Shown here: piece by piece, positions 42,000 to 42,658 of the stretch | How positions within the stretch are numbered: the stretch's first letter is position 1 | Layout: every line of letters begins with the position of its first letter | Origin: Chloroflexia bacterium | GTDB taxonomy: Bacteria > Chloroflexota > Chloroflexia > Thermomicrobiales > CFX8 | DNA length: 64,000 nt | Assembly: GCA_030431755.1 (NCBI GenBank) | Contig: JAUIIK010000004.1 | Span: 1,042 to 65,041, forward strand | Reading direction: 5' to 3' | Notes under the pieces: model-generated | Told to the model about the DNA's origin: nothing | What the model saw: only the letters and a program-made list of their open reading frames with translations | Databases searched by the model: none | Program-made: the position numbers and the translations under genes

Positions 42000-42658
42000 A
42001 TGGGTTGGTTTTCAGACAGCGATGGACAGCATCTGGTGCGGACACTACTGATCGTCGAAACGTCGGACAACACGCTCTCCCGCCGGGTGCGGGCGATCTT
42101 GCGGCCCGGCGACTGGGACATCGTGACGACGCTACCGGAGACTGCCACCGAACGCGCGCTGAAGACCGCGGCGCTGCTCGCCATTATCAGCGAACAAGCG
42201 CTGGCAGCAACGCCCGGACTGGTCGCCGCAATGGCGCAGCGGGTGCGGACCCCAATCGGCATTGCCGGCGGGGGCGACGCCCGGCAGGAGACGCTCGCGC
42301 TGCAGGCAGGAGCCACGGCCTACTTCGATCTACGCCAGCCAAATGCGTTGATCGAAGCGCGGCTGGAGGTGCTGCTCCGGCGGCACCCTTTCGCGCACAC
42401 CTGGCCGAGACCCCGCCGGGGCTTGGATGGCGCGAACGACAGCTGCTCCATTGCCTGGTTGCCCACCAGGGGCCGCTCACACGAGCGGAGGCGCTTGAGC
42501 TCATCTGGCGCGGGCACGCCAGCCCGAGCGTCTACCGCGTGGGACTCTTTCGTCTCAAACGGAAGCTTGCTGCTACACGACTACACATCGACGTCCGGCC
42601 AGGGCATGGAGCGCAAATCAGGCTCGCCTGCGGCGCCGGCGAAGGTCCAGGGGATTGA
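42000..42658 (+). pseudogene. Second OmpR-type regulator, split between two frames at 42386-42392 (indel/pseudogene or programmed -1 frameshift)
   Basis: Frame 0 (from ATG 42000) encodes a receiver-like domain: LLIVETSDN...LLAIISEQA...PIGIAGG...LQAGATAYF...LLRRHPF. The -1 frame (stop at 42656-42658) encodes the wHTH: LGWRERQLLHCLVAHQGPLTRAEALELIWRG...VYRVGLFRLKRKL...DVRPGHGAQIR. The junction is CAC CCT TTC. Confidence 0.6.

Follow-up and report, generated by a model that had tools for sequence, protein, structure and literature searches.

Within a 64,000-nucleotide (nt) stretch of the genome of a Chloroflexia bacterium (Thermomicrobiales; assembly GCA_030431755.1, contig JAUIIK010000004.1; hereafter the window, G+C content 65%), a response-regulator gene at positions 42000–42658 of the forward strand is divided between two reading frames, and the frame changes at a slippery heptamer, C CCT TTC. 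We consider it likely that a ribosomal –1 shift at this heptamer yields the full-length regulator, and that the shift is conserved and probably corrective. The support for this shift is computational throughout, and two genomes carry the split. The features on which the argument rests are listed below; ORF denotes an open reading frame, aa amino acids and SD Shine–Dalgarno.

42000–42392, + strand: frame-0 segment, the receiver-like (beta-alpha)5 half of the regulator (translation, substitution pattern, AlphaFold model and profile match)
42365–42371, + strand: SD-like GGAGGTG, candidate 5΄ stimulator, 14 nt 5΄ of the heptamer
42386–42392, + strand: slippery heptamer C CCT TTC, phased in frame 0 (P-site CCU to CCC, A-site UUC to UUU)
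42392–42658, + strand: –1-frame segment, linker and winged-helix DNA-binding half, with the stop codon TGA at 42656–42658 (gapless alignment to single-ORF orthologues)
42405–42426, + strand: weak hairpin (CCGAG.CCCC...GGGGCUUGG), 12 nt 3΄ of the heptamer
42393–43325, + strand: frame-0 continuation, stop-free for 311 codons, into a secreted-protein gene (441-aa fusion; ORF list, protein P0009)

Frame switch within the regulator gene

The sequence around the heptamer (region 42370–42410) reads CACCCTTTCGCG. Frame 0 begins at ATG 42000, the start also chosen by the gene caller on an independent Logan contig (L001), and an alternative start, GTG 42033, agrees with the N-termini of the orthologues (M-R/K-x-L-L-V/I-V-E). 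From ATG 42000 the first frame-0 stop lies at 43325, which gives a 441-aa ORF, and the –1 frame runs from 42005 to TGA 42656–42658 without interruption. A –1 slip at the heptamer would give ...LEVLLRRHPF-RAHLAETPPGLGWRERQ..., a protein of 219 aa. The start at 42000, the end at 42658, the two frames, the heptamer, the ~219-aa product and the stop at 43325 had all been given in a first-pass annotation of this DNA, and each of them holds on re-reading the sequence. C CCT TTC is the sole XXXYYYZ heptamer between 42000 and 42700, and 19 canonical heptamers (YYY being AAA or TTT) occur on the + strand of the 64-kb window.

No ATG, GTG or TTG codon was found in the –1 frame of the window between 42005 and 42539. 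Because there is no start codon in that frame, the –1 half can be reached only via a shift at the heptamer. Separate initiation of the winged-helix half was ruled out for both split genes, as no usable start codon is present in the window or in its closest orthologue. Predicted peptides of the –1 half include AEALELIWR and LHIDVRPGHGAQIR, and the junction itself is predicted to give the tryptic peptide HPFR and the Glu-C peptide VLLRRHPFRAHLAE. The first-pass annotation had further predicted that the frame-0 ORF would be annotated as a fusion with the downstream gene, and such an entry exists: the 441-aa NCBI protein P0009 is identical to the frame-0 ORF. This public annotation, in which the receiver half is fused to the downstream secreted protein, would be wrong as a description of the functional product.

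We searched with the joined protein against 1.8 billion cluster representatives using full HMMER and recovered a single-ORF orthologue, P0001 (210 aa, 50% identical, E = 9e-49), which aligns in one stretch over residues 14–214. The same search found seven further distant proteins of ~220 aa with a receiver plus a winged helix, and a word-index protein search with the joined protein gave no matches. The alignment with P0001 has zero gaps over the junction, and both proteins read LLRRHPFR there; the junction RRHPF-R is invariant between the joined protein and the single-ORF orthologues. Since only frame 0 gives RRH and only the –1 frame gives the Arg that follows PF, the switch is confined to the two codons of the heptamer.

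The identification of the second half as a winged helix, proposed in the first-pass annotation, is weak when judged by single-sequence Pfam comparison, in which Trans_reg_C scored 15.7 bits, under the cut-off of 26.2. The same identification is firm by the family profile, whose matches to PrrA (E = 1.8e-39) and KdpE (E = 1.4e-37) span both domains, including the DNA-binding domain, and by the predicted structure. The AlphaFold 2 (AF2) model of the joined protein (predicted local distance difference test score 85.5, predicted template modelling (TM) score 0.75, from a 12-sequence alignment) contains five strand-helix units (strands and helices at residues 14–127), followed by a winged helix. 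The best Foldseek matches in the Protein Data Bank were full-length OmpR-family regulators, namely RpaA, VanR, KdpE, RitR, PrrA and MtrA, and the receiver-domain matches had TM scores of 0.76–0.84.

The profile match to PrrA and KdpE also bears out the earlier label ‘OmpR-type’ as regards family membership, but the protein is atypical. In the profile alignment, the phospho-acceptor Asp of PrrA and KdpE (VLD and ILD, respectively) aligns with Ser64 of the window protein, and this position is occupied by Thr in the clade that encodes the protein in one frame and by Ala in distant relatives. As judged from this alignment, the receiver domain is an atypical pseudo-receiver without the phospho-acceptor Asp, and the regulator is an atypical, probably phosphorylation-independent member of the OmpR family. 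Among the neighbouring ORFs scanned from 36.3 to 50.5 kb, no match to a kinase family was found, and the ORF at 46174–47109 had no Pfam match.

Orthologous loci and selection on the two halves

We compared the site with orthologous DNA from a Logan contig (L002), Thermalbibacter longus (L003), a metagenome-assembled genome (MAG) of Thermomicrobiaceae (L004), the Thermomicrobiales MAG ABC1.20 (L005; JAWKPC01, G+C content 60%) and a metagenome contig (L006). The loci fall into two groups. L002, L003, L004 and L006 encode the regulator in one frame, read CAC CCG TTY CGG (H P F R; CAC CCG TTT CGG in L002) and contain no slippery heptamer at the site; the proteins P0010–P0012 likewise read RHPFR or KHPFR. 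The split group consists of the window and L005, which reads CAC CCT TTC GCG, identical to the window. L005 is the closest orthologue and belongs to another species (60% aa identity, synonymous divergence (dS) 0.7–0.9); the two loci align without gaps over 42000–43106, with ~70% nt identity in the regulator gene (42000–42658). In L005 the heptamer lies at 6363–6369, with the receiver half in frame 0 and the winged-helix half (RDLLAAIPSDLGWRERQLAHCIVAHNGPLSRSEAIRVVWHGHAGASTFRVAVFRLKRKLAPTRLRIDVRPGHGAQ...) in the –1 frame. This –1 frame has a TGA 33 codons 5΄ of the heptamer, and no ATG, GTG or TTG appears in it until +153, in the middle of the winged helix.

The first-pass annotation had held that single-frame orthologues without the heptamer would speak against frameshifting. 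The nearest orthologue keeps both the split and the identical heptamer, and it is the distant clade that is single-frame and reads CAC CCG TTY CGG. In the loci compared here, the split and the heptamer thus appear to be specific to one lineage and not ancestral to the whole family. When the frame-0 ORF and the family alignment were used to look for more carriers of the split, the only matches were in-frame relatives and the protein of the window itself, and a DNA pattern scan of viral contigs gave nothing.

The substitutions between the window and L005 change their periodicity at the heptamer. Before it, the substitution rates at phases 0, 1 and 2 were 0.34, 0.21 and 0.47, as expected of coding in frame 0 (chi-square test, P = 0.0028), and after it (42393–42620) they were 0.16, 0.42 and 0.20, as expected of coding in the –1 frame (chi-square test, P = 0.0027). 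Nei-Gojobori estimates of the ratio of nonsynonymous to synonymous divergence (omega) agree in this respect. Omega was 0.36 for the N-terminal half read in frame 0 (dS 0.87) and 0.29 for the C-terminal half read in the –1 frame (dS 0.73), and values of 1.55 (dS 0.24) and 1.63 (dS 0.22) were obtained when the C-terminal half was read in frame 0 and in the +1 frame, respectively. For the C-terminal half in the –1 frame, synonymous and nonsynonymous changes differed significantly (Fisher test, P = 2.6e-5), and this half shows zero stops and zero indels between the two loci. These results indicate continued translation of the winged-helix half in the –1 frame while the two split-bearing lineages diverged. 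Around the site, third codon positions differed from L005 at 1 of 12 codons in 42357–42392, a window picked post hoc, and at 54 of 119 in the rest of the N-terminal half (P = 0.008).

Candidate signals, proposed mechanism and rival explanations

In E. coli, C_CC.U_UU.C was reported to ‘exhibit high level frameshifting’ (Sharma et al. 2014, PMC4066793); H_HH.U_UU.Y is among the most efficient heptamer classes, and U_UU.C and C_CC.U are individually shift-prone tetramers (PMC4066793). The same study gives a spacing of 6–17 nt for experimentally stimulatory SD-like motifs and a motif set of GGAG, GAGG and AGGKG (Sharma et al. 2014, PMC4066793), into which the GGAGGTG of the window fits in both respects. 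This motif is identical in the window and L005, and CTGGAAGCG stands in its place in all four in-frame loci. GGAGGTG occurs in the window at a frequency of 8e-5 per nt, and genes of the window use ribosome-binding sites of the GGAGG type.

The first-pass annotation had pointed to a CCCCG/CGGGG hairpin downstream of the heptamer and had found it unconvincing as a stimulator. The hairpin exists (42405–42426), inside a UUCGCGC/GCGCGAA stem (42390–42396 with 42429–42435) that begins within the heptamer, but it folds no better than shuffled sequence: folding-energy z-scores against shuffles were –0.74 and –1.47 for the window and +0.77 and +0.92 for L005. The inner hairpin is not kept in L005, and the outer UUCGCG/CGCGAA stem cannot serve as a standard stimulator because it starts inside the heptamer. 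A downstream hairpin or pseudoknot was accordingly rejected as the stimulator, since the folds do not surpass those of shuffled sequences and are not conserved; the hairpin at 42405–42426 is probably not a stimulator, and the likelier candidate, to judge from motif and spacing, is the upstream GGAGGTG. No known RNA family of the Rfam type was found around the site or in the spacer that follows the regulator gene.

We propose that translation would begin in frame 0 and first produce the receiver-like half. Once tRNA-Pro occupies CCU in the P site and tRNA-Phe occupies UUC in the A site, the two tRNAs would slip one base 5΄ onto CCC and UUU, and pairing of the 16S rRNA tail with GGAGGUG 14 nt upstream would probably aid the slip. 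The next codon would be CGC, and translation would run in the –1 frame through the linker and the winged helix to the TGA ending at 42658. The resulting product, ...RRHPF-RAHLAE..., would have the architecture that related species encode in one ORF, and ribosomes that do not shift would continue in frame 0 into the downstream gene.

The split may have originated in a one-base deletion in an ancestral CAC CCN TTT CGC, which would have created the heptamer: loss of the third base of the Pro codon, or of one T, gives exactly CAC CCT TTC GC. Among 660 single-base deletions in a reconstructed in-frame gene, only 1–4 generate a phased canonical heptamer spanning the deleted position, and each of these lies at this site. 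The deletion would have been tolerated since the slippery site arose by chance with it, and would later have been retained, with the SD-like motif (GAA GCG to GAG GTG) acquired or kept as a helper. Slippage would then compensate for the deletion, in which sense it may be called ‘corrective’, and it may also set the level of the regulator.

Frameshifting had been one of three explanations offered by the first-pass annotation, next to an error and a pseudogene, and the split in L005 together with selection on the –1 frame favours it over both. If one base of the CCCTTT run had been lost in sequencing or assembly, the real gene would be a single ORF, as it normally is in the in-frame clade, and indel errors arise in short homopolymers. 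The runs at the site are only 3 nt long, and L005, an independent assembly of another species (~71% nt identity in this region), agrees exactly with the window at the site in sequence and in number of bases; such an identical state is hard to reconcile with an assembly error, which would also leave the clade-specific GGAGGTG unexplained. The window is identical to Logan contig L001 at 1823 of 1823 bases, although this contig ends at 42206, leaving the site outside its span, and the rest of the window is without broken genes. Among the large ORFs, those that were checked (of 2194 aa, 989 aa and others) run without interruption, the Pfam domains of GlnA are covered over their full length, and overlaps of ORFs at 24.4–26.0 kb and 61.2–62.6 kb were rejected as frameshifts because they represent separate genes. 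Exact look-ups with the 441-aa ORF, the signal-peptidase fusion encoded downstream, both secreted proteins, GlnA and a guessed partial product gave no second assembly over the site; among the exact look-ups, the Logan contig was found by the upstream regulator only, and a genome scan with the signal-peptidase protein returned nothing. We regard an error as very unlikely. About as improbable is a slip of RNA polymerase, in which a base added in the C or T run would be followed by standard translation. It would yield the same protein and the same evolutionary signatures, and such realignment is known in bacteria (PMC5009743), but the known bacterial cases need long runs of A or T (~9; PMC5009743), whereas C3 and T3 are present here, and a phased X XXY YYZ with an upstream SD-like motif is characteristic of ribosomal rather than transcriptional slippage.

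That the regulator is a genuine pseudogene, inactivated once in an ancestor or twice at a hotspot and with an untranslated winged-helix half, is also unlikely. The gene is disrupted at the DNA level, the adjacent paralogous regulator (41230–41931) could make it dispensable, and ‘conserved pseudogenes’ have been reported in surveys (PMC3711429). However, the –1 half remains free of stops and indels at a dS of ~0.73, its omega is on a par with those of the N-terminal half and of the neighbouring secreted-protein gene (0.31), and the substitution periodicity tracks the –1 frame; purifying selection in this frame is hard to reconcile with a decaying pseudogene. A recent inactivation would need two independent identical deletions and would leave the shared GGAGGTG and the synonymous conservation unexplained. 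Somewhat less probable still is that the frame-0 product, either the receiver-like half with a long tail or the fusion with the secreted protein, is the main output and the winged-helix form a minor by-product. Frame 0 runs on for 311 codons without a stop and is in phase with the downstream gene both in the window and in L005, and the 260-nt spacer between the regulator stop and the secreted-protein gene aligns between them without gaps. In the 175 codons before the downstream start, frame 0 has 0 stops in either locus, compared with 2 and 1 in one of the other phases and 6 and 5 in the other. Nevertheless, the pattern of evolution is not that of frame-0 coding sequence, either after the heptamer (omega 1.55) or in the spacer (omega 0.71, without significant periodicity, P = 0.27), and the idea that selection keeps frame 0 open across the spacer was rejected since zero stops in 86 spacer codons are not significant at a G+C content of 65%. 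The frame of the secreted protein is open back through the spacer and the winged-helix half in the window (42393–43325), in L005 (6370–7308) and also in the in-frame species L003 (6311–7351); the frame-0 ORF fuses with the downstream gene in both split genes because this frame is open throughout. The downstream gene moreover has its own start and, 6 nt upstream of it, a purine-rich AAAGGGA as a possible ribosome-binding site.

Several points weigh against a ribosomal shift that makes the regulator. The lack of a frame-0 stop close to the site is unusual among characterised cases, and folding revealed no convincing 3΄ stimulatory structure, so the efficiency of the shift may be low. The distant clade is in-frame without the heptamer, and the site is accordingly not ancient; the split is known in two genomes only; and at the site the base count rests on one assembly of the organism, as L001 stops 5΄ of it. 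The region of synonymous conservation was, as stated, chosen post hoc, the SD-like motif was likewise spotted post hoc, and both rest on two sequences.

Gene neighbourhood and comparison with known systems

The regulator gene lies in a cluster (41230–45807) that is syntenic in the window, L005 and L003 and comprises the Trans_reg_C paralogue, the split regulator, two secreted paralogues and a signal-peptidase-DUF5305 protein. The genes that accompany the regulator are as follows.

41230–41931, + strand: upstream Trans_reg_C regulator paralogue, 233 aa (Pfam Trans_reg_C, E = 1.8e-16)
42918–43325, + strand: small secreted-protein gene, GTG start, 135 aa, signal or anchor segment at the N-terminus; it reads in frame 0 of the regulator
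43454–43903: paralogue of the secreted protein, 3΄ of the first copy; no Pfam family for either copy
43933–45807: signal peptidase S26/S24-DUF5305 fusion, 3΄ of the secreted paralogues

The upstream regulator occupies the same position in L002, L003 and L005. It was considered as a recent duplicate of the split regulator and rejected, as the two have no detectable pairwise similarity. The first secreted-protein gene is conserved in L005 (omega 0.31) and in L003. Both OmpR-type regulators of the cluster are degenerate, and the cluster as a whole brings to mind SipW-dependent matrix or pilin-like systems.

The spacer between the regulator and the first secreted-protein gene contains a conserved 11-pair stem-loop (AACCCCAGGCAA...TTGCCGGGGGTT) at 42710–42741 of the window, at ~6687–6718 in L005 and at ~4953–4985 in L002. 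Compensatory changes occur at two pairs across the three loci, and the element has no Rfam match and no T-tract. Neither a sigma-70 promoter nor an intrinsic terminator was found in the spacer. One could imagine a regulated switch with two outputs, in which shifted ribosomes would make the regulator ending at 42658 and unshifted ribosomes would melt the stem-loop at 42710–42741 and enter the secreted-protein gene in phase. Such a switch seems improbable to us; if it were real, shift efficiency would couple the dosage of the regulator to the expression of the downstream secreted-protein and signal-peptidase operon, or to the formation of an N-terminal fusion.

Outside the cluster, a region of ~1.2 kb between glnA and the first regulator (39977–41229) contains no ORF longer than 131 aa, is 100% identical in Logan contig L001 and gave no match above the gathering scores of Rfam. 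Two c-di-GMP-I riboswitch aptamers (RF01051), ~1.1 kb apart and both above the gathering score, lie on the + strand at 4073–4164 and 5205–5296 (68.3 and 61.5 bits, respectively). On the – strand, 29538–36122 encodes a 2194-aa protein with four NPCBM domains, Big_5 repeats, a glucose/sorbosone dehydrogenase domain and FG-GAP repeats, and 61245–62619 contains adjacent flagellin and FliW genes, whose over-extended ORFs overlap by ~120 nt; these are separate genes and not a frameshift.

As a protein, the regulator resembles the atypical OmpR-family members HP1043, RitR and CosR, which are among its structural matches and likewise combine a receiver fold lacking the phospho-acceptor Asp, replaced by another residue, with a winged helix. 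Sequence identity to them is 15–18%, and, unlike in those proteins, the beta-sheet at the N-terminus of the DNA-binding domain lacks ~14 residues in the family of the window regulator. We know of no known atypical OmpR-family regulator that is expressed by frameshifting. Non-mobile bacterial genes offer few well-supported –1 frameshifts, with dnaX, copA, csoS2 and cdd as examples. In literature searches and in the main text of the large GeneTack survey, we found no report of frameshifting in a gene of the response-regulator type.

In mechanism the site resembles that of E. coli dnaX, also a chromosomal non-mobile gene with tandem slippage on X XXY YYZ and an internal SD-like motif upstream at a stimulatory distance (PMC5009743). 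The dnaX signals are A AAA AAG, an upstream AGGGAG and a 3΄ stem-loop, and its shift leads to a stop one codon later and to a shorter second product, the full protein being that of frame 0. In the present gene, by contrast, the full-length protein would depend on the shift, the heptamer reads C CCU UUC and, to judge from the folds, no convincing 3΄ structure is present. In the longer shifted product, a fusion of an N-terminal domain with a C-terminal domain read in the –1 frame, the gene resembles orfA-orfB of IS3 and IS911, and an SD-like stimulator is used in IS911 (PMC4066793). Those, however, are mobile elements, usually with A AAA AAG or A AAA AAA, an early frame-0 stop and usually a 3΄ hairpin or pseudoknot, whereas the gene described here is a cellular regulator with single-ORF orthologues.

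These orthologues provide a natural control, as sister species encode the same protein in one ORF, without the heptamer and without the SD-like motif. The pair of states would therefore offer a clean system for the fixation of a frameshift mutation, its ‘rescue’ by the ribosome and the possible later recruitment of an internal SD motif. The gene also resembles the cases of ‘corrective’ frameshifting, in which translation compensates for an indel relative to intact orthologues, so that the ancestral protein is still made, and the product without the shift is probably of no use (Atkins et al. 2016, PMC5009743). The corrective cases known come mostly from mitochondria or viruses (Atkins et al. 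2016, PMC5009743); the present one would differ from them in that it occurs in a free-living bacterial lineage, has been kept across species-level divergence and has apparently acquired an SD-like helper.

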